Shown: positions 7,401 through 62,173 of the stretch, piece by piece
Layout: every line of letters starts with the position of its first letter
Position numbering within the stretch: position 1 is the first letter of the stretch
Assembly (NCBI RefSeq): GCF_002854065.1
Contig: NZ_CP024147.1
Origin: Escherichia coli
Lineage (GTDB): Bacteria; Pseudomonadota; Gammaproteobacteria; Enterobacterales; Enterobacteriaceae
Strand: one strand, 5' to 3'
DNA: 64,000 nt
Translations under genes and position numbers: made by a program
Notes under the pieces: generated by a model
What the model saw: only the letters and a program-made list of their open reading frames with translations
The model's database searches: none
Told to the model about the DNA's origin: nothing

Positions 7401-8458
7401 AACTGCCGCGCGATCGCTGGCTGGAGCTGGGCCTGACCGACGAAGAGAAACAAAATCAGCTGGAACAGCTGGCTGAGCAGTATGACGAACTGAAACACGA
7501 GTTCGAGAAGAAACTCGAAGCGAAACGCCGCAAAATCACCCAGGGCGACGATCTGGCACCGGGCGTGCTGAAGATTGTTAAGGTATATCTGGCGGTTAAA
7601 CGCCGTATCCAGCCTGGTGACAAGATGGCAGGTCGTCACGGTAACAAGGGTGTAATTTCTAAGATCAACCCGATCGAAGATATGCCTTACGATGAAAACG
7701 GTACGCCGGTAGACATCGTACTGAACCCGCTGGGCGTACCGTCTCGTATGAACATCGGTCAGATCCTCGAAACCCACCTGGGTATGGCTGCGAAAGGTAT
7801 CGGCGACAAGATCAACGCCATGCTGAAACAGCAGCAAGAAGTCGCGAAACTGCGCGAATTCATCCAGCGTGCGTACGATCTGGGCGCTGACGTTCGTCAG
7901 AAAGTTGACCTGAGTACCTTCAGCGATGAAGAAGTTATGCGTCTGGCTGAAAACCTGCGCAAAGGTATGCCAATCGCAACGCCGGTGTTCGACGGTGCGA
8001 AAGAAGCAGAAATTAAAGAGCTGCTGAAACTTGGCGACCTGCCGACTTCTGGTCAGATCCGCCTGTACGACGGCCGCACTGGTGAACAGTTCGAACGTCC
8101 GGTAACCGTTGGTTACATGTACATGCTGAAACTGAACCACCTGGTCGACGACAAGATGCACGCGCGTTCCACCGGTTCTTACAGCCTGGTTACTCAGCAG
8201 CCGCTGGGTGGTAAGGCACAGTTCGGTGGTCAGCGTTTCGGGGAGATGGAAGTGTGGGCGCTGGAAGCATACGGCGCAGCATACACCCTGCAGGAAATGC
8301 TCACCGTTAAGTCTGATGACGTGAATGGTCGTACTAAGATGTATAAAAACATCGTGGACGGCAACCATCAGATGGAGCCGGGCATGCCAGAATCCTTCAA
8401 CGTATTGTTGAAAGAGATTCGTTCGCTGGGTATCAACATCGAACTGGAAGACGAGTAA
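4430..8458 (+). CDS. rpoB: DNA-directed RNA polymerase subunit beta
   Basis: ORF track 4397..8458; the RpoB N-terminus [20 protein letters not shown] begins at 4430 giving 1342 aa. Confidence 0.98.
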
Positions 8459-8534
8459 TTCTCGCTCAAACAGGTCACTGCTGTCGGGGTAAAACCCGGC
8501 AGCGGATTGTGCTAACTCCGACGGGAGCAAATCC

Positions 8535-11500
8535 GTGAAAGATTTATTAAAGTTTCTGAAAGCGCAGACTAAAACCGAAGAGTTTGATGCGATCAAAATT
8601 GCTCTGGCTTCGCCAGACATGATCCGTTCATGGTCTTTCGGTGAAGTTAAAAAGCCGGAAACCATCAACTACCGTACGTTCAAACCAGAACGTGACGGCC
8701 TTTTCTGCGCCCGTATCTTTGGGCCGGTAAAAGATTACGAGTGCCTGTGCGGTAAGTACAAGCGCCTGAAACACCGTGGCGTCATCTGTGAGAAGTGCGG
8801 CGTTGAAGTGACCCAGACCAAAGTACGCCGTGAGCGTATGGGTCACATCGAACTGGCTTCCCCGACTGCGCACATCTGGTTCCTGAAATCGCTGCCGTCC
8901 CGTATCGGCCTGCTGCTCGATATGCCGCTGCGTGATATTGAACGCGTACTGTACTTCGAATCTTATGTCGTTATCGAAGGCGGTATGACCAACCTGGAGC
9001 GTCAACAGATCCTGACTGAAGAGCAGTATCTGGACGCGCTGGAAGAGTTCGGTGACGAATTCGACGCGAAAATGGGTGCGGAAGCAATCCAGGCTCTGCT
9101 GAAGAGCATGGATCTGGAGCAAGAGTGCGAACAGCTGCGTGAAGAGCTGAACGAAACCAACTCCGAAACCAAGCGTAAAAAGCTGACCAAGCGTATCAAA
9201 CTGCTGGAAGCGTTCGTTCAGTCTGGTAACAAACCAGAGTGGATGATCCTGACCGTTCTGCCGGTACTGCCGCCAGATCTGCGTCCGTTGGTTCCGCTGG
9301 ATGGTGGTCGTTTCGCGACTTCTGACCTGAACGATCTGTATCGTCGCGTCATTAACCGTAACAACCGTCTGAAACGTCTGCTGGATCTGGCTGCGCCGGA
9401 CATCATCGTACGTAACGAAAAACGTATGCTGCAGGAAGCGGTAGACGCCCTGCTGGATAACGGTCGTCGCGGTCGTGCGATCACCGGTTCTAACAAGCGT
9501 CCTCTGAAATCTTTGGCCGACATGATCAAAGGTAAACAGGGTCGTTTCCGTCAGAACCTGCTCGGTAAGCGTGTTGACTACTCCGGTCGTTCTGTAATCA
9601 CTGTAGGTCCATACCTGCGTCTGCATCAGTGCGGTCTGCCGAAGAAAATGGCGCTGGAGCTGTTCAAACCGTTCATCTACGGCAAGCTTGAACTGCGTGG
9701 TCTTGCTACCACCATTAAAGCTGCGAAGAAAATGGTTGAGCGCGAAGAAGCTGTCGTTTGGGATATCCTGGACGAAGTTATCCGCGAACACCCGGTACTG
9801 CTGAACCGTGCACCGACTCTGCACCGTCTGGGTATCCAGGCATTTGAACCGGTACTGATCGAAGGTAAAGCTATCCAGCTGCACCCGCTGGTTTGTGCGG
9901 CATATAACGCCGACTTCGATGGTGACCAGATGGCTGTTCACGTACCGCTGACGCTGGAAGCCCAGCTGGAAGCGCGTGCGCTGATGATGTCTACCAACAA
10001 CATCCTGTCCCCGGCGAACGGCGAACCAATCATCGTTCCGTCTCAGGACGTTGTACTGGGTCTGTACTACATGACCCGTGACTGTGTTAACGCCAAAGGC
10101 GAAGGCATGGTGCTGACTGGCCCGAAAGAAGCAGAACGTCTGTATCGCTCTGGTCTGGCTTCTCTGCATGCGCGCGTTAAAGTGCGTATCACCGAGTATG
10201 AAAAAGATGCTAACGGTGAATTAGTAGCGAAAACCAGCCTGAAAGACACGACTGTTGGCCGTGCCATTCTGTGGATGATTGTACCGAAAGGTCTGCCTTA
10301 CTCCATCGTCAACCAGGCGCTGGGTAAAAAAGCAATCTCCAAAATGCTGAACACCTGCTATCGCATTCTCGGTCTGAAACCGACCGTTATTTTTGCGGAC
10401 CAGATCATGTACACCGGCTTTGCATATGCAGCGCGTTCTGGTGCATCTGTTGGTATCGATGACATGGTCATCCCGGAGAAGAAACACGAAATCATCTCCG
10501 AGGCAGAAGCAGAAGTTGCTGAAATTCAGGAGCAGTTCCAGTCTGGTCTGGTAACTGCGGGCGAACGCTACAACAAAGTTATCGATATCTGGGCTGCGGC
10601 GAACGATCGTGTATCCAAAGCGATGATGGATAACCTGCAAACTGAAACCGTTATTAACCGTGACGGTCAGGAAGAGAAGCAGGTTTCCTTCAACAGCATC
10701 TACATGATGGCCGACTCCGGTGCGCGTGGTTCTGCGGCACAGATTCGTCAGCTTGCTGGTATGCGTGGTCTGATGGCGAAGCCGGATGGCTCCATCATCG
10801 AAACGCCAATCACCGCGAACTTCCGTGAAGGTCTGAACGTACTCCAGTACTTCATCTCCACCCACGGTGCTCGTAAAGGTCTGGCGGATACCGCACTGAA
10901 AACTGCGAACTCCGGTTACCTGACTCGTCGTCTGGTTGACGTGGCGCAGGACCTGGTGGTTACCGAAGACGATTGTGGTACCCATGAAGGTATCATGATG
11001 ACTCCGGTTATCGAGGGTGGTGACGTTAAAGAGCCGCTGCGCGATCGCGTACTGGGTCGTGTAACTGCTGAAGACGTTCTGAAGCCGGGTACTGCTGATA
11101 TCCTCGTTCCGCGCAACACGCTGCTGCACGAACAGTGGTGTGACCTGCTGGAAGAGAACTCTGTCGACGCGGTTAAAGTACGTTCTGTTGTATCTTGTGA
11201 CACCGACTTTGGTGTATGTGCGCACTGCTACGGTCGTGACCTGGCGCGTGGCCACATCATCAACAAGGGTGAAGCAATCGGTGTTATCGCGGCACAGTCC
11301 ATCGGTGAACCGGGTACACAGCTGACCATGCGTACGTTCCACATCGGTGGTGCGGCATCTCGTGCGGCTGCTGAATCCAGCATCCAGGTGAAAAACAAAG
11401 GTAGCATCAAGCTCAGCAACGTGAAGTCGGTTGTGAACTCCAGCGGTAAACTGGTTATCACTTCCCGTAACACCGAACTGAAACTGATCGACGAATTCGG

Positions 11501-41184: not shown

Positions 41185-41328
41185 CTGACTGTAGGCCGGA
41201 TAAGGCATTTACGCCGCATCCGGCAATCGGTGCACGATGCCTGATGCGACGCTTGCGCGTCTTATCATGCCTACAACCGTTGCCGAACGTAGGCTGGATA
41301 AGGCGTTTACGCCGCATCCGGCAATTCT
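41185..41328. repeat. REP/BIME cluster (three REP units) in aceA-aceK intergenic region
   Basis: Imperfect palindromes gtaggccggataaggcatttacgccgcatccggca / gcctgatgcgacgcttgcgcgtcttatcatgcctac / gtaggctggataaggcgtttacgccgcatccggca. Confidence 0.9.
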
Positions 41329-50485: not shown

Positions 50486-52117
50486 GTGTTAACGCTGCTT
50501 CACCTGCTTTCTGCCGTCGCCCTGCTGGTCTGGGGGACTCATATTGTTCGAACCGGCGTAATGCGCGTCTTCGGCGCGCGTTTGCGTACTGTCCTTAGCC
50601 GGAGCGTCGAAAAAAAGCCGCTCGCCTTTTGCGCGGGGATCGGCGTTACCGCACTGGTGCAGAGCAGTAATGCCACCACCATGCTGGTGACCTCGTTTGT
50701 CGCTCAGGATCTGGTAGCCCTCGCACCGGCTCTGGTGATTGTGCTGGGTGCAGATGTCGGGACGGCGCTAATGGCGCGTATTCTCACCTTCGACTTATCC
50801 TGGCTGTCACCGTTACTTATTTTTATCGGCGTGATTTTTTTCCTCGGACGCAAACAGTCACGCGCCGGGCAACTGGGCCGCGTCGGTATTGGTCTTGGGC
50901 TGATTTTGCTGGCGCTGGAGTTGATTGTGCAGGCCGTAACGCCGATCACCCAGGCAAACGGCGTTCAGGTAATCTTTGCCTCGCTGACCGGCGATATTCT
51001 GCTGGATGCGCTGATTGGCGCGATGTTCGCCATTATCAGCTACTCCAGCCTTGCTGCTGTACTGCTGACTGCGACTCTGACCGCCGCAGGCATTATCTCC
51101 TTCCCCGTGGCGCTCTGTCTGGTGATTGGTGCTAACCTCGGTTCCGGCCTGCTGGCGATGCTCAACAACAGTGCCGCCAATGCCGCAGCCCGCCGTGTCG
51201 CGCTGGGTAGTTTGCTGTTTAAGCTGGTGGGTAGCCTGATTATCCTGCCGTTTGTCCATTTGCTGGCAGAGACAATGGGGAAGTTGTCATTGCCAAAAGC
51301 GGAACTGGTGATCTATTTCCACGTCTTCTACAACCTTGTACGTTGCCTGGTCATGCTGCCATTTGTTGACCCGATGGCACGGTTTTGCAAAACGATTATT
51401 CGCGATGAACCGGAACTGGATACCCAGCTACGGCCCAAACATCTGGATGTCAGCGCGCTGGATACGCCCACGCTTGCTCTGGCGAACGCCGCGCGCGAAA
51501 CCCTGCGCATTGGCGACGCCATGGAACAGATGATGGAAGGGCTGAATAAAGTGATGCACGGCGAGCCACGGCAGGAGAAAGAGCTGCGTAAGCTGGCAGA
51601 TGATATCAACGTTCTCTATACCGCCATTAAGCTGTATCTGGCGCGGATGCCAAAAGAAGAGCTGGCGGAGGAAGAGTCGCGCCGCTGGGCGGAGATCATC
51701 GAAATGTCGCTCAACCTTGAACAGGCCTCCGATATCGTCGAGCGCATGGGGAGCGAAATTGCCGATAAATCGCTGGCAGCACGGCGGGCATTTTCGCTTG
51801 ATGGCTTGAAGGAACTGGATGCGCTCTATGAGCAATTGCTCAGTAATTTAAAACTGGCAATGTCGGTTTTCTTCTCTGGTGATGTTACCAGCGCCCGTCG
51901 TTTGCGCCGCAGCAAGCATCGCTTTCGCATTCTTAATCGCCGCTATTCCCACGCCCACGTCGATCGCCTGCATCAGCAAAACGTGCAGAGCATTGAAACC
52001 AGTTCGCTACATTTAGGCTTACTGGGAGATATGCAGCGTCTGAACTCGCTGTTTTGTTCGGTGGCTTACAGTGTGCTGGAACAGCCGGATGAAGATGAAG
52101 GACGGGACGAGTATTAA
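50486..52117 (+). CDS. yjbB: Na/Pi-cotransporter family inner membrane protein YjbB
   Basis: 543-aa ORF, GTG start with RBS aaggag, highly hydrophobic N-terminal 350 aa and soluble C-terminal domain. Confidence 0.88.
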   Translation: MLTLLHLLSAVALLVWGTHIVRTGVMRVFGARLRTVLSRSVEKKPLAFCAGIGVTALVQSSNATTMLVTSFVAQDLVALAPALVIVLGADVGTALMARILTFDLSWLSPLLIFIGVIFFLGRKQSRAGQLGRVGIGLGLILLALELIVQAVTPITQANGVQVIFASLTGDILLDALIGAMFAIISYSSLAAVLLTATLTAAGIISFPVALCLVIGANLGSGLLAMLNNSAANAAARRVALGSLLFKLVGSLIILPFVHLLAETMGKLSLPKAELVIYFHVFYNLVRCLVMLPFVDPMARFCKTIIRDEPELDTQLRPKHLDVSALDTPTLALANAARETLRIGDAMEQMMEGLNKVMHGEPRQEKELRKLADDINVLYTAIKLYLARMPKEELAEEESRRWAEIIEMSLNLEQASDIVERMGSEIADKSLAARRAFSLDGLKELDALYEQLLSNLKLAMSVFFSGDVTSARRLRRSKHRFRILNRRYSHAHVDRLHQQNVQSIETSSLHLGLLGDMQRLNSLFCSVAYSVLEQPDEDEGRDEY

Positions 52118-52128
52118 TACCGTGACCC

Positions 52129-52202
52129 TGTAGGCCTGATAAGACGCGTAAAGCGTCGCATCAGGCACTATGAACAAGATGCCGGATCATGCATCCGGCA
52201 AT
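52129..52202. repeat. REP elements between yjbB and pepE
   Basis: gtaggcctgataagacgcgtaaagcgtcgcatcaggc and gccggatcatgcatccggca palindromic units. Confidence 0.85.
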
Positions 52203-52206
52203 TCAC

Positions 52207-52896
52207 TTAAAAACGGTGACCCGCTTCCAGCGGAACCGCTTCTTCACCGGCCTTAAACACATAGGTGGTGTTCGGGCCACCCAGCGTTGCGTGACCTTTA
52301 CTCACTGTGATCCAGTTACCTTCCGGTAGACCAATAATCGTCAGTTCTGGCGCGACGACCAGCAGTTCGCGAATACGCTGTTCACGGGTTTCACCTTTAT
52401 GGCCTTCCGGCAGCGCGTTGGTGAAGTGCGGGTTGATTTGCAACGGGAACAGATTCAGCGCATCGAAACCTTGCGGATCGACAATCGGCATATCGTTGGT
52501 GGTACGAATGGTTGGGCAAGCAAGGTTAGCGCCTGCGCTCCAGCCAATATACAGTGCGCCACGTTTAACCACGTCAGTAATTGGTGCCAGCAGCCCGCGC
52601 TCGCGGCACTGTTTCAGCAACTGGAAAGTATTACCGCCGCCGACAATCACGATCTCAGCATTTTCAATCGCGGCAACGGGATCGACAACGCTATGAATAC
52701 CGGTGACAGAAACACCCAGCGGAGCGAGAACCGCAGCCGTTTTCTCTGTGTAATCATCCCAGGTCTGCGTTACGCCAGCGAAAGGGATAAACACCGCTGA
52801 GCGGCGACCCTGCAACTGTTCAGCAATTAGCGGCAGTGCATGTTCCAGCCAGGCTTTACCCGGCAGCGTCGAGTTACTCAATAAAAGCAGTTCCAT
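52207..52896 (-). CDS. pepE: dipeptidase E (alpha-aspartyl dipeptidase)
   Basis: 229-aa [31 protein letters not shown], recognised PepE. Confidence 0.93.
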
Positions 52897-53017
52897 TACT
52901 TCTCCGGTTAGTAAGAAATCACGGAAGGAATGCTACCACTGCGAATTTAACCACTTACTGACATGGCTCACGATGTCACGTATTGCACAGGCGCTGAGAC
53001 TGATGACAAACACAGCA

Positions 53018-53120
53018 TTGCCTGATGCGCTACGCTTACCTGGCCTACCAGATAACTGCAATATATTGAATTTTCAAAATTATGTAGGCCGAATAAGGCT
53101 TTATTCCGCATCCGGCATAA
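53018..53120. repeat. REP elements at pepE / sor operon junction
   Basis: gcctgatgcgctacgcttacctggcctac and gtaggccgaataaggctttattccgcatccggca. Confidence 0.8.
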
Positions 53121-53277
53121 ACAATGTGTACTTTGCCACCAATTTGAGCGCCCCTTAAGGCGCTGATGTTTTTTTATCCTTCTCGTGCACATTGGGCCGC
53201 TTCAGCAATCAGCCGCACATCAGGTCGCGAAGTTGCCGCGGCGACCAGCCAGCGACATGCAGAGTTAAGTAGCGCGA

Positions 53278-54507
53278 TTAATCATGGGAAATTGCCTCTG
53301 CATGAGTGAGCAGATATTGCTCCGCCTCACCGGACCAGATCCCCTGATGACGCGCCAGAATCGCCGCCAGTGCTTGATCCTGAATCTGCGTGAGTGACGT
53401 CAGCGGCAGGTATTTCCCGGTATACACCAGCTTTTTGCCGCCGCCGACGGCAGGCAATTCAAGCGTGGTTTCGCCCGCGGCATTCAGCCCAAGAATATGT
53501 GTTACCACTTTTGCGGCCTGCACTTTTTTCTCTTCGATCAGTTTGACCGCCGCGCGCATGTCGTCGGTATTGCCGCCTGACGTGCCCACGTAGTGGGTAA
53601 ATGCATAATGCACATCGTAGAAATTAATTGGCGCGCTGAAATGTTTATCCTGCGGTCCGGCGAAGAAATTCAGGCAACCATCTGTCGCCAGCAAGGAAGA
53701 GGCGAGAGTCACCAGTCCTTCATTAGGCACAAAGACGAAAATATCATCGAAGCCGTGACCGCCACTCAGCGCCATTAGCGTATCAAATGCTGCATCGGTG
53801 GCATTGAGATAATGAATCAGTGTTTGCGATTCTGATGGATAGTGCTTGCGCGCATAACTCAATTTATCGTTGTCGGTATCGGTAATGACGAGCAGCGACG
53901 GGTTAACGGGTCCATGCAGCGCATAATCAATCGCCAACAGTCCCATTGGTCCGGTGCCGCCGAGGATCAGCGTGCGCCCTTGCGGGCGAATCCCCATCGT
54001 GTGGTTATAACTACCTTCCTGAAGATGATAGTTGGCGTTGAACGCGCCAATCACGCAGGAAAGCGGTTCAACCAGCGAGCCTTCAAAATAGGTTTCGCCG
54101 TCGTATGCCAGCAGGCAATCTTGTTCCATGACCTCGTTGGGAATAACCACATGCGTGGCTTCGCCGCCTACCCACGGGAAGGAGTAGCCGGGGCAGTCCG
54201 GGCGGTCGGGGAGTTGCAGGTTGGCCTGAATCACATAACGCTGACCCGGCTGGAATTTGTGCTGCCACTTTTTACCCACGGCCAGAATATCGCCGCAAAA
54301 CTCGTGGCCGATGATGATTGGGTTGGTCGCCACATCGTCGGGTACTTTTTTATGGTTTTCACCCAGGTTGGCCTCTTTCCAGGAAGAGAGGCACAGGCTG
54401 TCAGTGACCACCGTCGCGAGGATTTCTTCCTCCTGCATTTCAGGAAGGTCAAAGGTTTCCAGGCGTAAATCACGTTTACCATAAAGACGCAGAGCTGTTG
54501 TTTTCAT
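53278..54507 (-). CDS. sorE: L-sorbose-1-phosphate reductase (zinc-dependent MDR dehydrogenase)
   Basis: 409-aa product from MKTTALRLYG; GHEFCGDI zinc-ADH motif and Rossmann GGTGPMG; last gene of seven-gene sor cluster. Confidence 0.8.
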   Translation of the reverse strand: MKTTALRLYGKRDLRLETFDLPEMQEEEILATVVTDSLCLSSWKEANLGENHKKVPDDVATNPIIIGHEFCGDILAVGKKWQHKFQPGQRYVIQANLQLPDRPDCPGYSFPWVGGEATHVVIPNEVMEQDCLLAYDGETYFEGSLVEPLSCVIGAFNANYHLQEGSYNHTMGIRPQGRTLILGGTGPMGLLAIDYALHGPVNPSLLVITDTDNDKLSYARKHYPSESQTLIHYLNATDAAFDTLMALSGGHGFDDIFVFVPNEGLVTLASSLLATDGCLNFFAGPQDKHFSAPINFYDVHYAFTHYVGTSGGNTDDMRAAVKLIEEKKVQAAKVVTHILGLNAAGETTLELPAVGGGKKLVYTGKYLPLTSLTQIQDQALAAILARHQGIWSGEAEQYLLTHAEAISHD

Positions 54508-54558
54508 AAACCACCTCATGTTGAGCGATGGCCCCGGCAGTCGTGCCGGGGCGAAGAA

Positions 54559-55383
54559 TCAGGACAGGAAGCCCAGCGCATTGCCGATAATTCCTAAGCC
54601 AAACAGGGCGAAAATCAGCCATACCGGGTTAATTTTTTTGTTGAGCAGACGAACCATTAGTAGCGTCAGACCGAGCGCCAGCAAACCAGGGCAAAGTTGG
54701 TCGAGAATGTTCTGCACGGTCATGGTGACGGTGGAGCCATCGGCGGCATGCGTTTGTGAAACCACCAACGGTACGTTGATTGACGTCCATTTGGTGACCA
54801 GCACGCCCATCACAAACAGTCCGAGAATCGACGCGCCTTCGGTGAGTTTTTGCAGCACATTCCCGCCCATATCGCTGACGATATTCACCCCTTTGCGAAA
54901 GCCGAGCTGTAGGCCATACCACTTCATCGCCAGACGCACCGCGTTGAAAATAAAGAAGAACAGCAGCGGGCCGAGAATGTTGCCCGAAAGTGCCAGAGAT
55001 GCGCCGAGCGCGGCGGTAATCGGGCGCAGCGTTCCCCAGACCAGTGGGTCGCCAACCCCTGCCAATGGTCCCATCAGACCGACTTTGATGCCGTTAATGG
55101 TACCGTCATCAATTTCCGCGCCGTTGGCCCGCGCCTCTTCCATGGCGGCAGTGACGCCGATGACCGGGCCACATACGGCTGGCGTGGTATTGAAGAACAC
55201 CAGGTGTCGCCTGAGCGCCGCAACCTGATCCTCTTTTAATGGGTAAAGTCGCTTGATGGCGGGGATCATGTCGTAGCAAAAACCCAGCCCGTGAATACGT
55301 TCAAAGTTAAAGGACGCCTGTTGCAGGTTGGAGCGCAGAAACATGCTCACCAGATCGCTGCGTGTAATTTTTCTCTGTTCCAT
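54559..55383 (-). CDS. sorM: PTS mannose/sorbose-family EIID component
   Basis: 274-aa product from MEQRKITRSDLVSMFLRSNLQQASFNFERI, resembling ManZ N-terminus; multi-TM. Confidence 0.8.
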   Translation of the reverse strand: MEQRKITRSDLVSMFLRSNLQQASFNFERIHGLGFCYDMIPAIKRLYPLKEDQVAALRRHLVFFNTTPAVCGPVIGVTAAMEEARANGAEIDDGTINGIKVGLMGPLAGVGDPLVWGTLRPITAALGASLALSGNILGPLLFFFIFNAVRLAMKWYGLQLGFRKGVNIVSDMGGNVLQKLTEGASILGLFVMGVLVTKWTSINVPLVVSQTHAADGSTVTMTVQNILDQLCPGLLALGLTLLMVRLLNKKINPVWLIFALFGLGIIGNALGFLS

Positions 55384-55393
55384 GATGGCTCCG

Positions 55394-56191
55394 TTAATCG
55401 TCAAGTTGGTCAAGGGCGGTGGAGGCGGTGGCCTGGAGTTGAGGTTCAGCTTTACGCCACTGTGGATTTAGCTGGATGTAGACCAGGGCCATGATCACGC
55501 CGACGCCACCGAACGCCAGCAGACTGAGATCGAGGTAGCCACCTGCGAGGAAACCGAGGAAAAAGAAAGGCATCAAATATTTCACGCCCATCATACGTAG
55601 CACCATGGCGTAACCGACCACCACGATAAAACCGCCAGCAATCTGTAGTCCTCGGGTCACAAATTCGGGAATGGCGTTTAACATATTGCTGACCATATCG
55701 GCGCTGACGAACAGCGAGACAATCAGTGCCGGAATAGCAACGCGCAGCGCCTGCACGCCAAGCGCGGAGACATGCAGAATATCGAAAGTGCGAAACCGCG
55801 CCTCTTCCGCTGCTTTATCCGCCGCGTGCTGGAACACTACGGTGATGGTACGGGCAAACACCGTCAGCACCTGGCCTGCCGCAGCCACAGGCAACGCGAT
55901 GGCGATTCCGGTGGCGATGCTTTGCTGACCAACGATAACCAGAATGGCGGAGATTATGCTGGCGAGTGCAGAGTCCGGAGATTGCGCCGCGCCGACGTTC
56001 ATCCAGCCGAGAGCTATCAATTCCAGCGTACCACCGAGTATTATTCCGGTTTTTAAATCACCGAGAATTAAACCAATCACCGTACAGGCAATTAACGGGC
56101 GATGAGTCTGAAATTCATCCAGCACGCTGCCCATTCCGGCAATACAGGAAAAAAGAAATATAGCAATAATTTGTAGGGTACTTATTTCCAT
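55394..56191 (-). CDS. sorA: PTS mannose/sorbose-family EIIC component
   Basis: 265-aa hydrophobic ORF MEISTLQIIAIFLFSCIAGMGSVLDEFQ, ManY-like. Confidence 0.8.
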   Translation of the reverse strand: MEISTLQIIAIFLFSCIAGMGSVLDEFQTHRPLIACTVIGLILGDLKTGIILGGTLELIALGWMNVGAAQSPDSALASIISAILVIVGQQSIATGIAIALPVAAAGQVLTVFARTITVVFQHAADKAAEEARFRTFDILHVSALGVQALRVAIPALIVSLFVSADMVSNMLNAIPEFVTRGLQIAGGFIVVVGYAMVLRMMGVKYLMPFFFLGFLAGGYLDLSLLAFGGVGVIMALVYIQLNPQWRKAEPQLQATASTALDQLDD

Positions 56192-56256
56192 GATTTGTCA
56201 CCTTTTAAGTGTCGTCATCCCTGCCTGTTAAAGCATATGTACACAGGCGCTATTAT

Positions 56257-56751
56257 TTAATTTGCGATTAACTGTTCGTTTATTTTGTCGATAATATTGA
56301 TTGAGGGATCTGACGCTACGACGCGTAAATCCAATATGACGCCAAGATTATTTAACTCATGAAATGCGTTAATATCATCATCATCTAATGAAACCGCTTT
56401 GGTTAACTGTTTTTTACCGGGCCGCCAGGCCATGCCGCCAATATTCAGGGTGCCTATTTTTACCCCCTGGCGAACCATCGCTAAGGCATCCTGTGGGCGA
56501 GTGAAAAGATAAAAAACGGTTTCGTCCTGATATTGCGGGTTGTGATAAACCGCGATGGCTTTTTCAATATTGACCACGTTAACCTTCATTCCCGGTGGCG
56601 CAGCCTGACGCAATAATGTCCGGCGAACTTCATCGTTATAAACTTCGTCATTGCAGATAATAATGCGCTGGGCGTTAGCCACTTTCGACCAGACGGTAGT
56701 GACCTGACCGTGGATCAGGCGGTCATCAATGCGGGCGAGCGTAATGTTCAT
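56257..56751 (-). CDS. sorB: PTS mannose/sorbose-family EIIB component
   Basis: 164-aa ORF with RIDDRLIHGQV phosphohistidine motif of EIIB-Man family. Confidence 0.8.
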   Translation of the reverse strand: MNITLARIDDRLIHGQVTTVWSKVANAQRIIICNDEVYNDEVRRTLLRQAAPPGMKVNVVNIEKAIAVYHNPQYQDETVFYLFTRPQDALAMVRQGVKIGTLNIGGMAWRPGKKQLTKAVSLDDDDINAFHELNNLGVILDLRVVASDPSINIIDKINEQLIAN

Positions 56752-57158
56752 CAGAAATCCTCCTCTGTCGTTGCCAGTTGTTTCCAGACAACGCAGGATT
56801 GCTTTGCGATTTGCGTCAGGTGTTCACACAGTTCATCAACATTCATGCTGTCCTGGTTATCAACCAGTTCGAGGGCCAGCGGCAGAGAAAGGCCGCTGAT
56901 TACCCGCAGACGAGGATTGCGCATCGCAAGCATCGCTGCCGCATTCCACGGGCTGCCGCACTGTAAATCCACGGTAATCAGCCACTCATCTTGATTGTGA
57001 ATGCTTACTAACTTTTCCAGCTTTGCTACGATGTCTCCGGCGTTCTCGCCGGGCACAAATTCAACGGCTTCAACATTGGTGTTGCCGTAAACCATCTGAA
57101 CCGATTCCAGCATGGCGCAAGCTAATTTGCCGTGGGCACAAAAAATGGCGTTGACCAT
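56751..57158 (-). CDS. sorF: PTS mannose/sorbose-family EIIA component
   Basis: 135-aa ORF MVNAIFCAHGKLACAML, EIIA-Man fold. Confidence 0.78.
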   Translation of the reverse strand: MVNAIFCAHGKLACAMLESVQMVYGNTNVEAVEFVPGENAGDIVAKLEKLVSIHNQDEWLITVDLQCGSPWNAAAMLAMRNPRLRVISGLSLPLALELVDNQDSMNVDELCEHLTQIAKQSCVVWKQLATTEEDF

Positions 57159-57167
57159 AAAGCCTCC

Positions 57168-57974
57168 TTATCCGCGCGTTTTGCCGCCCGCAATGTTAGT
57201 GGTTACTCCGGTGATGTAGCTGGCGCGTTCAGACAACAGATAACAAACAAAATCAGCGACTTCTGCTAATCTTCCGGCGCGCCCAATAGGAATGGCGTTT
57301 TTGGTATAGCCTTCACGCAGCTGCTCGACGGTGATATTGCGCGTCCACGCCAGCGCCTCTTCATATTCCGGCGTGCGTAGCCCGGTTTTTTCCAGAATCC
57401 CCGGCGCGATACCGACCACACGGATACCGTGTTTACCCAGCTCTTTCGACCAGGAGCGCGTGAAGCTATTGAGCGCGGCTTTGGTAGCGGCGTAACAGCT
57501 TTGTCCTTCTGAGCCTTCCAGTCCACTTTCTGAGGAAACATTCACAATCACGCCATCATGTTGTTTGACCATCTGTCGCGCCACCGCCTGCGACATCAGA
57601 AAAACGCCTTTCTGGTTGATATTGACCATTTTTTCGAATACAGCTTCGTTGAGTTCATACTTCCCGGCAGGCGCTTTCTCATCGACCAGCAGACGCGGGA
57701 AATTGACCCCGGCGTTATTGACCAGACCGTCGATGCGACCAAAACGCTGGATAATTTCCGCTACCGTATGATTTACCTCTTTGGCGCTGGAAATATCGGT
57801 CGGCCAAAACTGATAGCCTTTATGACCTTCATATTGTCCATCGCCACCGTGAATATCGACCATCTGTACATTCGCGCCTTGTGCTAATAATTCCTCTACA
57901 ATAGCCAGACCAATACCGGATGCGCCGCCGGTGACGATAATGATTTTATCCTGCAAATTTAACCACGTTTGCAT
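57168..57974 (-). CDS. sorD: SDR-family sorbitol(glucitol)-6-phosphate dehydrogenase
   Basis: 268-aa ORF with TGGASGIG cofactor motif and catalytic YxxxK (YAATKAAL). Confidence 0.8.
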   Translation of the reverse strand: MQTWLNLQDKIIIVTGGASGIGLAIVEELLAQGANVQMVDIHGGDGQYEGHKGYQFWPTDISSAKEVNHTVAEIIQRFGRIDGLVNNAGVNFPRLLVDEKAPAGKYELNEAVFEKMVNINQKGVFLMSQAVARQMVKQHDGVIVNVSSESGLEGSEGQSCYAATKAALNSFTRSWSKELGKHGIRVVGIAPGILEKTGLRTPEYEEALAWTRNITVEQLREGYTKNAIPIGRAGRLAEVADFVCYLLSERASYITGVTTNIAGGKTRG

Positions 57975-58043
57975 AACAGACTCCTGATTTTAGATAATAG
58001 GGACCCGCCGTAATTTTTATTACGATAATCATCGGGAAGATTT

Positions 58044-58991
58044 TTATTTCAGTAATAGTTCAGCTGTGCTGCTATTCGTTACCAGACAATTAATATATTT
58101 TCCACGCAGTGCACCAATAATTCCGCTGTATTTTTCTTCACTCATGGCAATGCCAATTGAATATCGTGCCTGCTTTAATTTATTCATTTCGATAGAGAGT
58201 GTTTTTTCGCTCATATTCGTTTCAACCATTGCGCCGTGAATATCAAAAAAGCGCGAGCAAATATCGCCAGCAACCTGGCGGGCATTCAGGTCGTCACTCT
58301 CTTCACCACCATAAAACGCATGCCAGTTAGCGCCGTCGCGAATGGCCGGTGAGCCAATTCCCACCAGGGCGACATCCAGATTATCCCAGTAGGCAGAGAT
58401 GGTTTTAAAGTGCTGAGACTGCATGATCCCATTACGAATTAAGGGGTTATCCAGCAGAGCCGGAAAATCCGCGAGATGCGATTCCCCTTTCAGCTTCGCA
58501 GCCGCGCTGTAGGTTAATGTGTTTACGTGATAGCGGCTTTCGAGTTTACCGGACGGTCCGCCAATAATTGGTACGCAGATTAACTGCCGCGATTGCCCCG
58601 CCTGCGGCAAGTTTTCAACCAGTGCGCTCACCGCGCGACCCCAGGAAAAACCGACAATATCGCCAGGCTCCAGCAAGCGATCCAGCAGTTGCGCGCCGTG
58701 TAACCCCATCATCGCCAGTTGAGTCTCTTCATCCTCATCATTTCCCGACACCACCACAACGTCTTTCAGGCCAAACTTTTGCTTCAGTTGCTGCTCCAGC
58801 CAGAGATTTTCGTTGTAGTCATAGTTGATGGCGATGGTGACAATTCCCTGATCGCGGCCTCGTTTAAGCAAGCGGCTGATGGTGGTGCGGTAAATACCCA
58901 GTTCGCGCGCGATTTGCGCCTGCGTCATATCCTGTTCGTAATAGAGTTGGGCAATCTTCACAATCAAACGGATATCGTCACTGTTTTCCAT
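58044..58991 (-). CDS. sorC: SorC-family transcriptional regulator of the sorbose operon
   Basis: 315-aa product from MENSDDIRLIVKIAQLYYEQDMTQAQIARELGIYRTTISRLL (N-terminal HTH) plus sugar-phosphate-binding domain; track ORF N-terminally extended. Confidence 0.8.
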   Translation of the reverse strand: MENSDDIRLIVKIAQLYYEQDMTQAQIARELGIYRTTISRLLKRGRDQGIVTIAINYDYNENLWLEQQLKQKFGLKDVVVVSGNDEDEETQLAMMGLHGAQLLDRLLEPGDIVGFSWGRAVSALVENLPQAGQSRQLICVPIIGGPSGKLESRYHVNTLTYSAAAKLKGESHLADFPALLDNPLIRNGIMQSQHFKTISAYWDNLDVALVGIGSPAIRDGANWHAFYGGEESDDLNARQVAGDICSRFFDIHGAMVETNMSEKTLSIEMNKLKQARYSIGIAMSEEKYSGIIGALRGKYINCLVTNSSTAELLLK

Positions 58992-59338
58992 TGCCGCCTC
59001 CTGGTTCTGCACATTTGTGCAAATACGCTTTCTCACCGCTTGATCTGATATAACCCCATCATGATGGCCTTTCAAAGCGATTTTTCACTCTTTGCATGGG
59101 GAGAAATAGCGCTTTCTCTTGCACATTTGTTTCTCTGCGCAGTAGTCATCAGCACAGGTGTGCAGCGATTCGTAATATGTTGATTATCCTTATTTTGACA
59201 GGCAAATTTGCATTGTACTTCCGGAGACACTTTTGTGATAAAAGGCGTGGCAGATCACATTTAATTTCGACGTTGCCGCATAACCCTGTTTTTCCCCGCT
59301 AAGAGGTACGGTATATTCCGCGTTTTACAGGAGAATTT

Positions 59339-60211
59339 ATGCTGCCCGACTCATCAGTCCGTTTAAATAAATACATCAGCGAAAGCGGAATTTGCTCACG
59401 CCGCGAAGCGGATCGCTATATCGAGCAAGGCAATGTGTTCCTTAATGGCAAGCGAGCCACCATTGGCGATCAGGTGAAACCCGGCGACGTTGTGAAAGTA
59501 AACGGTCAGTTGATTGAACCTCGGGAAGCCGAAGATTTGGTACTTATCGCCCTGAACAAGCCCGTCGGTATTGTCAGCACCACCGAAGATGGCGAGCGCG
59601 ATAACATTGTCGATTTTGTTAACCACAGCAAACGCGTGTTCCCGATTGGCCGCCTGGATAAAGACTCCCAGGGGCTGATTTTCCTCACCAATCACGGCGA
59701 TCTGGTGAATAAGATCCTCCGTGCGGGTAACGATCATGAGAAAGAGTATCTGGTGACGGTCGATAAACCGATTACCGATGAATTTATTCGTGGTATGGGG
59801 GCGGGGGTGCCGATCCTCGGGACGGTGACTAAAAAGTGCAAAGTCAAAAAAGAAGCGCCGTTTGTCTTCCGCATTACCCTGGTGCAGGGGCTGAACCGTC
59901 AGATCCGGCGCATGTGCGAGCATTTCGGCTATGAAGTGAAAAAGCTGGAACGTACGCGCATTATGAACGTCAGCTTAAGCGGCATTCCGCTGGGAGAATG
60001 GCGCGATTTAACCGACGACGAGCTTATCGATCTCTTTAAGCTCATTGAAAATTCCTCTTCCGAGGCGAAGCCCAAAGCGAAGGCCAAACCGAAAACAGCG
60101 GGCATCAAACGTCCAGTCGTTAAGATGGAAAAAACGGCGGAAAAAGGCGGTCGCCCGGCGTCCAACGGTAAGCGTTTTACCTCGCCGGGGCGTAAAAAGA
60201 AGGGGCGCTAA
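59339..60211 (+). CDS. rluF: 23S rRNA pseudouridine synthase RluF
   Basis: 290-aa ORF with S4 domain and RsuA-family catalytic motif ([13 protein letters not shown]), lysine-rich C-terminal tail. Confidence 0.92.
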
Positions 60212-60484
60212 TCAGCGCCTGCCGCGCGTCGACGTATTTGCTGACCAGCTAAATGACGCTTCAGGATCCGGTTTATAAGCCTGCTTTTTCTTCAATTGGC
60301 GGGCTTTTTTTGCTTCAGCCTCACGCTCAACCATTAATTTATCGATGTAATCTTTCTTAATGCTGTTGGTTTCGGAGTTGGTCAGTACGCGACCATGCGC
60401 AATCCGCGCCCGATCCAGCAGTGTTTTAAGTTCACGCTGCTCGCGTTCAGTCATCTCTTTTTGGGTAATACGGGGGAGTGCCAT
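60212..60484 (-). CDS. yjbD: DUF3811 family protein YjbD
   Basis: 90-aa basic ORF MALPRITQKEMTEREQRELKTLLDRA; stop codon abuts rluF stop. Confidence 0.85.
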   Translation of the reverse strand: MALPRITQKEMTEREQRELKTLLDRARIAHGRVLTNSETNSIKKDYIDKLMVEREAEAKKARQLKKKQAYKPDPEASFSWSANTSTRGRR

Positions 60485-60582
60485 GATGGTGCCCTCAGTG
60501 AGCCAGAGAGTTCAGTGTACGGGAATTCGTTTGCGAGCAGAACTGATAATATTCCTTTGTTCTCTTCGGTAATGACTCCAAC

Positions 60583-61086
60583 TTATTGATAGTGTTTTAT
60601 GTTCAGATAATGCCCGATGACTTTGTCATGCAGCTCCACCGATTTTGAGAACGACAGCGACTTCCGTCCCAGCCGTGCCAGGTGCTGCCTCAGATTCAGG
60701 TTATGCCGCTCAATTCGCTGCGTATATCGCTTGCTGATTACGTGCAGCTTTCCCTTCAGGCGGGATTCATACAGCGGCCAGCCATCCGTCATCCATATCA
60801 CCACGTCAAAGGGTGACAGCAGGCTCATAAGACGCCCCAGCGTCGCCATAGTGCGTTCACCGAATACGTGCGCAACAACCGTCTTCCGGAGCCTGTCATA
60901 CGCGTAAAACAGCCAGCGCTGGCGCGATTTAGCCCCGACGTATCCCCACTGTTCGTCCATTTCCGCGCAGACGATGACGTCACTGCCCGGCTGTATGCGC
61001 GAGGTTACCGACTGCGGCCTGAGTTTTTTAAATGGCGGAAAATCGTGTTGAGGCCAACGCCCATAATGCGGGCGGTTGCCCGGCAT
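60583..61086 (-). CDS. insB: IS1 transposase InsB (expressed as InsAB by -1 frameshift)
   Basis: 167-aa [54 protein letters not shown], overlapping insA in -1 frame. Confidence 0.97.
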
Positions 61087-61280
61087 CCAACGCCATTCAT
61101 GGCCATATCAATGATTTTCTGGTGCGTACCGGGTTGAGAAGCGGTGTAAGTGAACTGCAGTTGCCATGTTTTACGGCAGTGAGAGCAGAGATAGCGCTGA
61201 TGTCCGGCAGTGCTTTTGCCGTTACGCACCACCCCGTCAGTAGCTGAACAGGAGGGACAGCTGATAGAAACAGAAGCCAC
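61005..61280 (-). CDS. insA: IS1 protein InsA
   Basis: 91-aa [46 protein letters not shown], zinc-finger plus HTH. Confidence 0.97.
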
Positions 61281-61330
61281 TGGAGCACCTCAAAAACACC
61301 ATCATACACTAAATCAGTAAGTTGGCAGCA

Positions 61331-62035
61331 TCACCCGTTGGTGCTTTCCCAGCTTAATGCCGCTGAGGTGGTTTTTATCATGACTTCTGTTCGGTAGCCT
61401 GCATCTTTGAGTTTTTTTAATGTTTGTAGCGGCGTAGCGGCATTACGAAATGTTCCTTCGACAACAATATTGAGTTTATTGGCTATGGCCCTCTCTATTG
61501 CACGTTCGACCGTTTCGCCGGAAAATTTTGCCGTATGGGTAACAAAATCGTCGCCATAAGTTTGATATATATAATTAAAATCAGGGTGTAGAAATCTGAA
61601 ATCATCACCATTAATAATCATTATATTATTCTTTGTTTCCCTTTTTGCTAATTCGATTAGGGCGGATTTTCCGGCTCCTGGTTGTCCACCTAAAACAAAA
61701 CCAATGGGACTCTGCTGGGATGTGACGTCATGGTTTGTCAGACGCTGCCAAATAGAATCAAAAGACGCTTTATTTTCTGAATGCGCAGTATTATTAAATT
61801 CACGCTGATACTTTTTTCTGACCTGCTGGAGGCGTAACTTTTCCTGTGTAAAATCAACAAGTTCTGCTTGAGTGGAATAAAGATTGTCGCGATAGCTGAC
61901 TAATTGTGATAGCTCATCGTCTGAGTCCTGAACTTGTGAGGAAAAACAACTGTCGACGATATTTGATAAAAACGCGATGCACTGACTGGCGCCGTTTAAA
62001 AGTGCATCCTTTTCCATTAAAGTAGCCATTAACAC
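61331..62035 (-). pseudogene. zeta-toxin-family P-loop kinase with N-terminal extension (EzeT-like), 3-prime end truncated by IS1
   Basis: Walker A GGQPGAGKS and colinear similarity to zeta/PezT toxins; stop codon TGA is formed by bases 3-5 of the IS1 inverted repeat. Confidence 0.7.
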
Positions 62036-62173
62036 TCCTGTTAAATGATATTTTTCGGTGATTGTAATACTGTTCTACAGGAGTGATTTTGCTTTTCAGA
62101 TATTATTTAATCTATGTTTTCAGTGAGGATGGCGTATAACAATTGGTGAGCGTTATACGCCAGTAGGGAAATA

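Follow-up and report, generated by a model that had tools for sequence, protein, structure and literature searches.

The window, a stretch of 64,000 nucleotides of Escherichia coli DNA, carries seven minus-strand open reading frames (ORFs) at 53278-58991, in the interval from pepE to rluF, the chromosomal order here being metH-yjbB-pepE-sor-rluF (Table 1). From sorC to sorE, they encode a regulator, an SDR dehydrogenase, the IIA, IIB, IIC and IID subunits of a PTS, and a zinc-type reductase. ORF calls and profile matches agree with an earlier note on this DNA, which had described a seven-gene minus-strand set at this position, and the short or overlapping junctions it mentioned were measured as gaps of 69, 9, -1 (an ATGA overlap), 65, 10 and 51 bp. 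All seven sor genes are intact, real ORFs, with sorB unbroken; each has an ATG start, following the RefSeq choices for the 100%-identical strain CUWW06, and a Shine-Dalgarno-like sequence. A synteny comparison with K-12 MG1655 bore out that the operon is absent there, with 211 bp from pepE to rluF. Homology to MG1655 ends at 52977 and restarts at 59304 and, thus, 6,326 bp in the window stand for 95 bp in K-12. Beyond rluF, an IS1 element at 60583-61280 appears to have deleted neighbouring genes.

Table 1. Features of the pepE-rluF interval, with positions in the window, strand and supporting evidence.
Feature	Position	Strand	Evidence
pepE (dipeptidase E), left core flank	52207-52896	-	NF003642 357 bits, cutoff 156; named pepE in CUWW06 and MG1655
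pepE upstream DNA common to K-12	52897-52977		blastn against K-12-type loci and MG1655
Left homology breakpoint	52977/52978		blastn against K-12-type loci and MG1655
One BIME, two inverted REPs around an A/T-rich linker	~53010-53125		inverted repeat and copy count
Short GC-rich hairpin AGCGCC..GGCGCT	53147-53164		terminator-like match and fold
sdhL remnant (shikimate 5-dehydrogenase-like)	53174-53285	-	blastn and tblastn against E. whittamii L006 and E. coli SMS-3-5 L084
sorE, L-sorbose-1-phosphate reductase (predicted), zinc-type medium-chain dehydrogenase, 409 aa	53278-54507	-	Pfam ADH_N, ADH_zinc_N
sorM, EIID-Sor, 274 aa	54559-55383	-	TIGR00828 472 bits, cutoff 293
sorA, EIIC-Sor, 265 aa	55394-56191	-	TIGR00822 EII-Sor 425 bits, cutoff 340
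sorB, EIIB-Sor, 164 aa	56257-56751	-	PDB 1NRZ; TIGR00854 above cutoff
sorF, EIIA-Sor, 135 aa	56751-57158	-	TIGR00824 148 bits, cutoff 98
sorD, D-glucitol-6-phosphate dehydrogenase (predicted; SDR), 268 aa	57168-57974	-	NF004817 500 bits, cutoff 304
sorC, SorC-family regulator, HTH and sugar-binding domain, 315 aa	58044-58991	-	PDB 2W48; Pfam Sugar-bind 270 bits
sor control region	58992-59303	-	rluF-sorC intergenic alignment, motif coordinates, single-copy test
Right K-12 homology restarts, rluF 5' region	59304	+	comparison with K-12
rluF coding sequence	59339-60211	+	NF007784 608 bits

All seven ORFs are full length in comparison with homologues from six genera. SorC shares 87% identity with Klebsiella pneumoniae SorC (2W48) over its full length of 315 aa (E=1.4e-183), the corresponding value for SorB and K. 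pneumoniae IIB-Sor (1NRZ; E=7.6e-91) being 86%. The RIDDRLIHGQV segment of SorB is identical in 1NRZ, including the N-terminal IHGQ histidine, which is the phosphorylation site in the IIB family. The four EII polypeptides are separate proteins that match TIGR00824 (IIA), TIGR00854 (IIB), TIGR00822 (IIC) and TIGR00828 (IID), all above cutoff, these models being generic for the mannose/fructose/sorbose family; SorF is the most diverged subunit (73-92% identity across genera). SorD passes the cutoff of the sorbitol-6-phosphate dehydrogenase model NF004817. For SorE, profile matches are limited to the generic ADH_N and ADH_zinc_N, as the NCBIfam set used contains no SorE-specific model, and its predicted identity is based on operon position, published mutants, the RefSeq name (the identical CUWW06 protein is called sorE, the other products PTS sorbose-family subunits) and an identity of ~85-92% to the syntenic homologues of Klebsiella, Raoultella and Citrobacter. 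Protein families, gene order and the identities of SorC and SorB agree with the initial identification as a sorCDFBAME L-sorbose PTS operon, and we are highly confident that the segment is the native chromosomal form of this operon in E. coli at its usual site.

The pepE-side border turned out to be composed differently than suggested. While 52925-53277 had been described as packed with REP palindromes, only ~53010-53125 is a dispersed repeat, namely a single BIME with REP units at about 53018-53048 and 53084-53117; pepE upstream DNA shared with K-12, a GC hairpin and the remnant of an eighth gene, sdhL, are also found in this border. The BIME belongs to the sor-specific DNA, ~40 bp from the breakpoint, and forms part of the 3' untranslated region of the sor mRNA. 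On the minus strand, folding gives a long hairpin (z=-3.2), and a 116-bp BIME query had at least 39 matches in the median E. coli genome, counts being capped at 40. The sor-positive strain SMS-3-5 has no BIME at the corresponding position. Furthermore, REP elements occur on the pepE side alone, since the single-copy test revealed neither a REP nor any other repeat in the rluF-side border (58992-59338), which is single-copy. The operon is, therefore, not REP-bounded on both sides, and the idea that REPs delimit it as a recombination scar was not sustained. The GC hairpin is found just 3' of the former sdhL stop codon, with a T-run on the plus strand only. The sdhL remnant itself spans 112 bp, with an ATG overlapping the sorE stop codon (ATGATTAA) and a TAA at codon 7. 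An internal loss of 702 bp (junction at 53227/53228) has left the first ~19 and the last ~17 codons of a gene whose intact form encodes a 270-aa product (NF009202 462 bits, cutoff 306); in the window, sdhL is a dead remnant.

On the rluF side, alignment of 19 sequences from 6 genera defined conserved blocks in the sor control region. The palindrome TGCACAAATGTGCA (59008-59021) adjoins the sorC ribosome-binding site, and GGGGTTATATCAGATCAAG (59039-59057) includes a -10-like TATATC, which TTGAAA (59070-59075) precedes by 17 nt. Additional blocks are CAAATGTGCAA (59119-59129), CACAAAAGTGT (59227-59237) and TGTGATC (59253-59259). All of these motifs are intact in the window. They are putative operator/promoter elements, and the conserved palindromes are probably SorC operators.

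By analogy with the characterized Klebsiella and E. coli systems, SorF and SorB would relay phosphate that passes from PEP to EI/HPr, while SorA and SorM would form the membrane permease, so that L-sorbose would arrive in the cell as L-sorbose-1-phosphate. SorE would then reduce this compound to D-glucitol-6-phosphate, which SorD would oxidize to D-fructose-6-phosphate for glycolysis, and SorC, encoded by the first gene, would govern the operon in response to sorbose. Published phenotypes are available for orthologous operons with 97-98% DNA identity (the CFT073 clone, ST131 and ST648): a cloned fragment with the CFT073 operon allowed DH5alpha to grow on L-sorbose (PMC2831201), the seven sor genes were the strongest sorbose-induced genes in ST131 and ST648 (PMC12817954), and deletion of sorE in ST131 abolished sorbose use (PMC12817954). 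The primers used for CFT073 cloning (PMC2831201) match the window at 53248-53277 and at about 59309-59337, the forward primer falling inside the sdhL remnant.

The specificity of mannose-family EII complexes is hard to read from sequence, and the matching models are generic. Moreover, an ST131 sorAM deletion retained growth on sorbose (PMC12817954), indicating that other permeases overlap in specificity. One might thus suppose that the PTS takes up another substrate (mannose, fructoselysine/glucoselysine or N-acetylgalactosamine) and that the dehydrogenases belong to another pathway. However, SorB and SorC match the Sor proteins of K. pneumoniae (86-87% identity) much better than they match Man or Aga proteins: SorB scores 305 bits with IIB-Sor versus 171 bits with the IIB of E. 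coli ManX, and the Aga/galactosamine models remain below their cutoffs, with scores lower by a factor of two to three (e.g., the AgaE model with 166 bits for SorM versus 472 bits for TIGR00828). The better match to another PTS sugar that the earlier note had named as grounds for rejecting its proposal was, therefore, not seen. Together with the growth conferred by the orthologous CFT073 fragment, as well as the sorbose induction and sorE requirement of the orthologous operon, this makes another substrate extremely unlikely. A second concern is that the operon, although intact, could be cryptic or decaying, with the strain being Sor-negative or weakly positive. The closest allele, that of the wastewater strain CUWW06, is 100% identical, but its sorB is split by an IS1, a hint that the operon is under relaxed selection in this lineage; the IS1 element beyond rluF marks the lineage as IS1-active, sdhL is already a pseudogene remnant, and an ST10 strain with an operon knock-in took 48 h to grow on sorbose (PMC12817954). 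Nevertheless, the seven full-length ORFs and the unbroken upstream motifs argue against decay in the window, and sdhL-less ST131 and CFT073 do use sorbose (PMC12817954, PMC2831201). We therefore regard a cryptic operon as unlikely, and the source strain probably grows on sorbose.

Among 5,426 complete E. coli genomes, the sor segment was found in 2,868 and the 95-bp K-12-type filler in 2,557, the two forms of the locus together accounting for 5,425 of the 5,426 genomes, which substantiates the earlier description of the operon as strain-variable and missing from K-12. While sor alleles are 95-100% identical across E. coli, their divergence (95-99% identity) resembling that of the core genome, filler sequences from 2,549 of the 2,557 genomes agree to 99% or more. 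Such a near-invariant empty allele fits a recent single origin. A search for the source of the ~75-95 bp of K-12-specific filler found none, and the loss of sor in the K-12 type was not a clean deletion. Phylogroups A and B1 have been reported to lack the operon in most cases (PMC12817954), and published work associates its presence with non-A/B1 phylogroups and high-risk clones.

The absence of sor from most A and B1 strains, together with the short pepE-rluF spacing in K-12 and the BIME close to the pepE-side breakpoint, would fit an island inserted into a contiguous pepE-rluF junction, with REPs as recombination substrate and scar, and the earlier note had indeed described the operon as inserted. 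However, sor also separates rluF from pepE in Escherichia whittamii, E. albertii and Escherichia sp. MOD1-EC7003, and the same slot holds it in at least six other genera, among them Klebsiella, Raoultella, Citrobacter, Pseudocitrobacter and Enterobacter, as revealed by a comparison of 80 loci with 1 genome per species, K. pneumoniae not being among the loci returned. The Sor proteins diverge in step with the proteins encoded on either side (r=0.84, n=14). In Pseudocitrobacter, Sor and RluF resemble their E. coli counterparts more closely than PepE does, so that the locus has undergone some intergeneric exchange. The GC content of the region (0.40-0.57) does not depart from that of the flanks in any sustained way, the ORF list shows no integrase or transposase within 52897-59338, and neither a tRNA gene nor direct repeats were found at the segment ends. 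The hallmarks of a horizontally acquired island (mobility genes, target, repeats, composition, patchy position) are thus lacking. Furthermore, the rluF side is free of REPs, and the BIME lies within sor-specific DNA that in SMS-3-5 does without it. Considering also the almost invariant empty allele, insertion appears quite improbable. Because the slot is conserved across genera and divergence tracks that of the flanks, parsimony instead favors the sor-less K-12 state as the derived one, i.e., a loss, which we consider more likely.

The eighth gene suggests a starting point for such losses. Intact sdhL with an 8-nt overlap on sorE was identified at every sor-positive outgroup locus and in 177 E. 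coli genomes, while the deletion junction of the window is common to 2,645 genomes, so that ~92% of sor-positive E. coli have lost sdhL through one 702-bp deletion. Successive losses from an ancestral eight-gene sorCDFBAME-sdhL arrangement are, therefore, probable: the sdhL deletion would have come first, producing the state of the window and of most sor-positive E. coli, and the whole cluster would have disappeared separately in the K-12-type lineage. We put forward tentatively that the sor cluster of the ancestral enterobacteria comprised eight genes; in all sor-positive outgroup loci retrieved, sdhL is translationally coupled to sorE. In Kluyvera, sdhL and a SorC-like regulator have been kept, and the PTS and dehydrogenase genes are gone. 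Since some enzymes of the shikimate dehydrogenase family reduce 5-ketofructose, reduction of a keto-sugar is one candidate role for SdhL, and sdhL was co-induced by sorbose in ST648 (PMC12817954). If SdhL truly serves sorbose-related metabolism, the published label of sdhL as an "ST648-specific insertion" would be backwards, and the textbook seven-gene operon would be a derived form. The locus also offers a convenient marker for E. coli with three states, namely the eight-gene cluster, the seven-gene operon with an sdhL remnant, and the empty site.

It is well known that about half of E. coli strains, K-12 not among them, have a sor operon for L-sorbose use. Publications from the 1980s-1990s onward have described the operon and where it is located, along with its phenotype and the fact that K-12 lacks it, and work of 2010 and 2025 returned to the subject; as the earlier note rightly held, this is not a novel system, and our analysis carries little weight as a discovery. 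What is added here is a corrected direction, with the K-12 state being more likely a loss than the baseline, and a pepE-side border characterized by a single BIME and the remains of an eighth gene instead of a REP scar. Among related systems, the ManXYZ and Aga (GalNAc/GalN) PTS likewise belong to the mannose family, with an IID subunit and a His-phosphorylated IIB. However, IIA and IIB are fused in ManX and separate proteins in the window, and neither system has linked SorE/SorD dehydrogenases. The K. pneumoniae sorCDFBAME operon (Sprenger and Lengeler 1984; Wehmeier and Lengeler 1994; structures 2W48 and 1NRZ) has the same seven genes, order and domain families, and the window carries its species-level orthologue; for CFT073 and Klebsiella, the proteins have been reported to be 82-97% similar and the DNA 78% identical (PMC2831201). 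In contrast to the remnant in the window, the Klebsiella-group loci examined have an intact sdhL after sorE, and the eight-gene variant of SMS-3-5, ST648, other Escherichia and other genera combines the same site and seven genes with an intact sdhL. Within E. coli, sor was mapped near metH (Wehmeier et al. 1992), and the EAEC 042 genome paper described sorEMABFDC as adjoining rluF and missing from MG1655 (PMC2808357). Apart from the IS1 in sorB of CUWW06, which the window allele does not have, the E. coli operons (CFT073 c4981-c4987, EAEC 042 Ec042-4384-4390, ST131 and ST648) share its locus, flanks and seven genes, without any substantial difference.

The interval between pepE and rluF is occupied from 53278 to 58991 by seven long co-directional minus-strand ORFs (six-frame ORF list), corresponding to sorCDFBAME, the L-sorbose phosphotransferase (PTS) operon. 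Gene starts were taken from the RefSeq start codons of a 100%-identical genome, strain CUWW06, and a Shine-Dalgarno-like sequence was found ahead of each of the seven. From sorC to sorE, the junctions measure 69, 9, -1 (an ATGA overlap), 65, 10, and 51 bp, in agreement with the short or overlapping junctions described in an earlier note that was based on the sequence alone. The GC content of the segment ranges from 0.40 to 0.57 in 500-bp windows, with no sustained shift from the flanks. In CUWW06, which is the sole 100%-identical genome, sorB is interrupted by an IS1 (L001 7258-8529), while sorB is intact in the window; this suggests recent IS1 activity in this lineage and possibly relaxed selection on sor.

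Features of the sor locus and its surroundings in the window
Feature	Coordinates	Strand	Remarks
pepE	52207-52896	-	left neighbour
pepE upstream DNA	52897-52977		common to K-12
BIME	~53010-53125		two inverted REPs + A/T-rich linker
GC hairpin	53147-53164		small
sdhL remnant	53174-53285	-	shikimate dehydrogenase-like; non-repeat DNA
sorE	53278-54507	-	409 aa
sorM	54559-55383	-	274 aa
sorA	55394-56191	-	265 aa
sorB	56257-56751	-	164 aa
sorF	56751-57158	-	135 aa
sorD	57168-57974	-	268 aa
sorC	58044-58991	-	315 aa
TGCACAAATGTGCA	59021-59008	sorC sense	invariant; perfect-arm palindrome; abuts sorC ribosome-binding site
GGGGTTATATCAGATCAAG	59057-59039	sorC sense	invariant; holds -10-like TATATC, 17 nt past TTGAAA
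CAAATGTGCAA	59129-59119	sorC sense	invariant block
CACAAAAGTGT	59237-59227	sorC sense	invariant block
TGTGATC	59259-59253	sorC sense	invariant block
rluF	59339-60211	+	right neighbour
IS1	60583-61280		insA/insB ORFs
zeta-toxin-family ORF	61331-62035

A synteny comparison with MG1655 confirmed that pepE and rluF are contiguous in K-12, where they lie 211 bp apart without sor. Homology between the two sequences stops at 52977 and restarts at 59304, so that 6,326 bp in the window stand against 95 bp in K-12. The sor-specific segment was found in 2,868 of 5,426 complete E. coli genomes and the 95-bp filler in 2,557 (both together, 5,425), which bears out the description of the locus as strain-variable; the two are mutually exclusive alleles of one site. 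No plasmid match was obtained for the sor segment, and only one plasmid copy for the filler. Among the 2,557 genomes with the filler, 2,549 carry it at 99% identity or more, and identity of the sor allele ranges from 95 to 100%, as in flanking core genes. A word-7 blastn search of the filler (L002 2480-2574; MG1655 4230224-4230318) against all 85 comparison loci yielded only approximately 20 bp of extra pepE-side homology, in Escherichia sp. E1V33 and SMS-3-5; this pepE end aside, the filler has no detectable homologue in the sor-positive or empty-site loci of other species.

The earlier note had described the operon as inserted, a direction that the distribution of the locus across genera speaks against. 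Using PepE as query, with one genome per species and 20 kb examined around each match, we identified a complete operon between rluF and pepE in Escherichia sp. MOD1-EC7003, E. whittamii, and a divergent "E. coli" representative, and in the same slot in Klebsiella michiganensis, K. oxytoca, and K. grimontii, three Raoultella species and Raoultella sp. BIGb0138, several Citrobacter species, three Pseudocitrobacter genomes, and two Enterobacter species. In E. albertii and K. spallanzanii, just sorA, sorM, and sorE are visible beside pepE, with the fetched contig or flank ending within the operon. Empty sites were found in Escherichia sp. E1V33, C. koseri, S. enterica arizonae, Pluralibacter, and Intestinirhabdus, each with a different filler. 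Furthermore, the mean identity of the Sor proteins to those of the window correlates with that of the flanks (r=0.84, n=14), and within E. coli the operon has been reported in >86% of genomes in every phylogroup but A (9.6%) and B1 (12.1%) (PMC12817954, 2025). Given this correlation and this phylogroup distribution, the simplest reading, on grounds of parsimony, is that the operon is quite probably old at this site and that losses have recurred, the K-12-type lineage being one such case. Some exchange between genera is indicated at the locus by Pseudocitrobacter (L035, L037, L047), since its Sor and RluF proteins (94-99% identity to those of the window) resemble E. coli more than its PepE does (85-86%); this pattern may reflect inter-genus recombination covering rluF and sor.

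The ancestral operon appears to have included an eighth gene, sdhL, which encodes a shikimate 5-dehydrogenase-like protein. An intact 270-aa SdhL (462 bits against NF009202, cutoff 306) follows sorE in E. whittamii, Escherichia sp. MOD1-EC7003, E. albertii, SMS-3-5, and all sor-positive outgroup genera, with its ATG overlapping the sorE stop codon (ATGATTAA). In the window, the ATG is kept, but codon 7 reads TAA and an internal stretch of 702 bp has been deleted (junction at 53227/53228). This junction sequence is common to 2,645 complete E. coli genomes, and the deleted part is kept in 177 of 5,426. While sdhL was previously described only as an "ST648-specific insertion" with co-induction by sorbose (PMC12817954), the intact copies in outgroup loci show that it is ancestral. 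In six Kluyvera loci (L008, L010, L011, L025, L026, L033; ~7990-9850), rluF is followed by a SorC-like regulator (70% identity), an intact sdhL, and pepE, and the PTS, sorD, and sorE genes are absent; the presence of regulator and sdhL alone hints at an SdhL function independent of sorbose uptake.

The pepE-side border had been described as packed with REP palindromes forming a recombination scar, with REP elements bounding the operon. Instead, it consists of K-12-shared DNA, a single BIME, a GC hairpin, and the sdhL remnant. A BIME is present on the pepE side alone, as the rluF-side intergenic region is single-copy, and it lies approximately 40 bp inside the breakpoint and is missing from the same spot in SMS-3-5, so that neither a recombination scar nor bounding REP elements are supported. 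REP consensus patterns with up to 3 mismatches matched at 41191 and 41289 in the window but missed the border, where the repeats have diverged too far; border repeats were therefore judged by blastn copy number, and the 116-bp BIME piece showed a median of 39 or more copies per genome. On the sor transcript, the BIME forms a long hairpin (z=-3.2). An Rfam search of 52000-61500 (E<=1) returned sub-threshold matches only, among them ES036 at 53041-53081 (22.9 bits, gathering score 37.6) and an RNase P match that was dismissed as spurious. Additional BIME-related sequence was observed in the yjbB-pepE gap (52133-52200), which is BIME/REP-like with a terminator-like hairpin (Rfam naRNA4, 46 bits, gathering 59.5), and in E. 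albertii (L007 3543-4030), where about three tandem BIME copies lie between sdhL and pepE, compared to one in the window.

Alignment of the rluF-sorC intergenic region from 19 sequences of six genera revealed five invariant blocks (see table, in sorC sense). The two CAAATGTGCA-type motifs among them are candidates for SorC operators. For the sor promoter, we prefer the conserved TTGAAA-17-TATATC (59075-59047) as the predicted element, since the -10 of the promoter predicted by a promoter scan (-35 TTATCA/-10 TACAAT, 59241-59212), which we disfavour, is not conserved in other genera. Inspection by eye gave no fit of the conserved TGTGATC and CACAAAAGTGT blocks to the canonical CRP site TGTGA-N6-TCACA, and no CRP site is proposed. 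Between rluF and the control region, a conserved insert of ~120-130 bp (longer in L036) was observed in Raoultella terrigena, K. oxytoca, Citrobacter sp. Cu233, and two Enterobacter species (L014, L015, L022, L030, L036) but not elsewhere; it resembles a small mobile repeat of intergenic DNA.

A second variable spot lies beyond rluF, between yjbD and lysC (60567-62173), where an IS1 and a zeta-toxin-family ORF replace 167 bp of MG1655. This looks like an IS1-adjacent deletion, because CUWW06 keeps two more genes between yjbD and IS1, encoding a slipin-family protein and a pol-beta-superfamily nucleotidyltransferase. Between rluF and yjbD, MG1655 carries 122 extra bp (L085 4737-4858; window junction ~60211-60220) that are absent from the window and many other strains, in which yjbD directly follows rluF.

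The gene content, integrity, and orthology of sor in the window are shown by these data. In the established Klebsiella and E. coli scheme, phosphate from PEP would pass via EI and HPr to SorF and SorB, and SorA and SorM would bring in L-sorbose as L-sorbose-1-phosphate, to be reduced to D-glucitol-6-phosphate by SorE and oxidized to D-fructose-6-phosphate by SorD, with SorC expected to exert sorbose-responsive control of the operon.

The four PTS proteins exceed the curated NCBIfam cutoffs of the mannose/fructose/sorbose IIA, IIB, IIC, and IID families, while scores for the Aga (GalNAc/GalN) models are lower by a factor of two to three and miss their cutoffs. SorD reaches 500 bits against the sorbitol-6-phosphate dehydrogenase model (cutoff 304), and Pfam assigns HTH and Sugar-bind domains to SorC and ADH_N and ADH_zinc_N to SorE. 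The latter is the only one of the seven without its own family model, and its assignment rests on the RefSeq name, operon position, homologues with 85-92% identity in the corresponding slot of other genera, and published genetics, as sorE deletion abolished sorbose use (PMC12817954).

The locus is already well described, and the earlier note was right that it is not a novel system. Wehmeier et al. (1992) are cited for first mapping the operon near metH and iclR. The CFT073 operon (c4981-c4987) was cloned and enabled DH5alpha to grow on L-sorbose (PMC2831201); since the primers used correspond to 53248-53277 (forward, an exact match) and approximately 59309-59337 (reverse), the tested fragment covers the same interval as in the window. 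In EAEC 042, sorEMABFDC adjoins rluF, with MG1655 lacking the operon (PMC2808357), and in ST131 and ST648 the seven sor genes top the sorbose-induced list (PMC12817954). What is mildly fresh is confined to the decayed remnant of sdhL and to an ancestral operon of eight genes. The identification as sorCDFBAME likewise held: a different PTS sugar system, which the note had named in advance as the competing outcome, is rejected, as no better match to one was obtained. PDB sequences and annotated genomes were enough to settle orthology, with SorC 87% identical to K. pneumoniae SorC (PDB 2W48; over all 315 residues, E=1.4e-183) and SorB 86% identical to K. pneumoniae IIB-Sor (PDB 1NRZ; E=7.6e-91), including the same N-terminal RIDDRLIHGQV; with SorB as query, the E. 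coli ManX IIB domain reaches only 171 bits compared to 305 for IIB-Sor.
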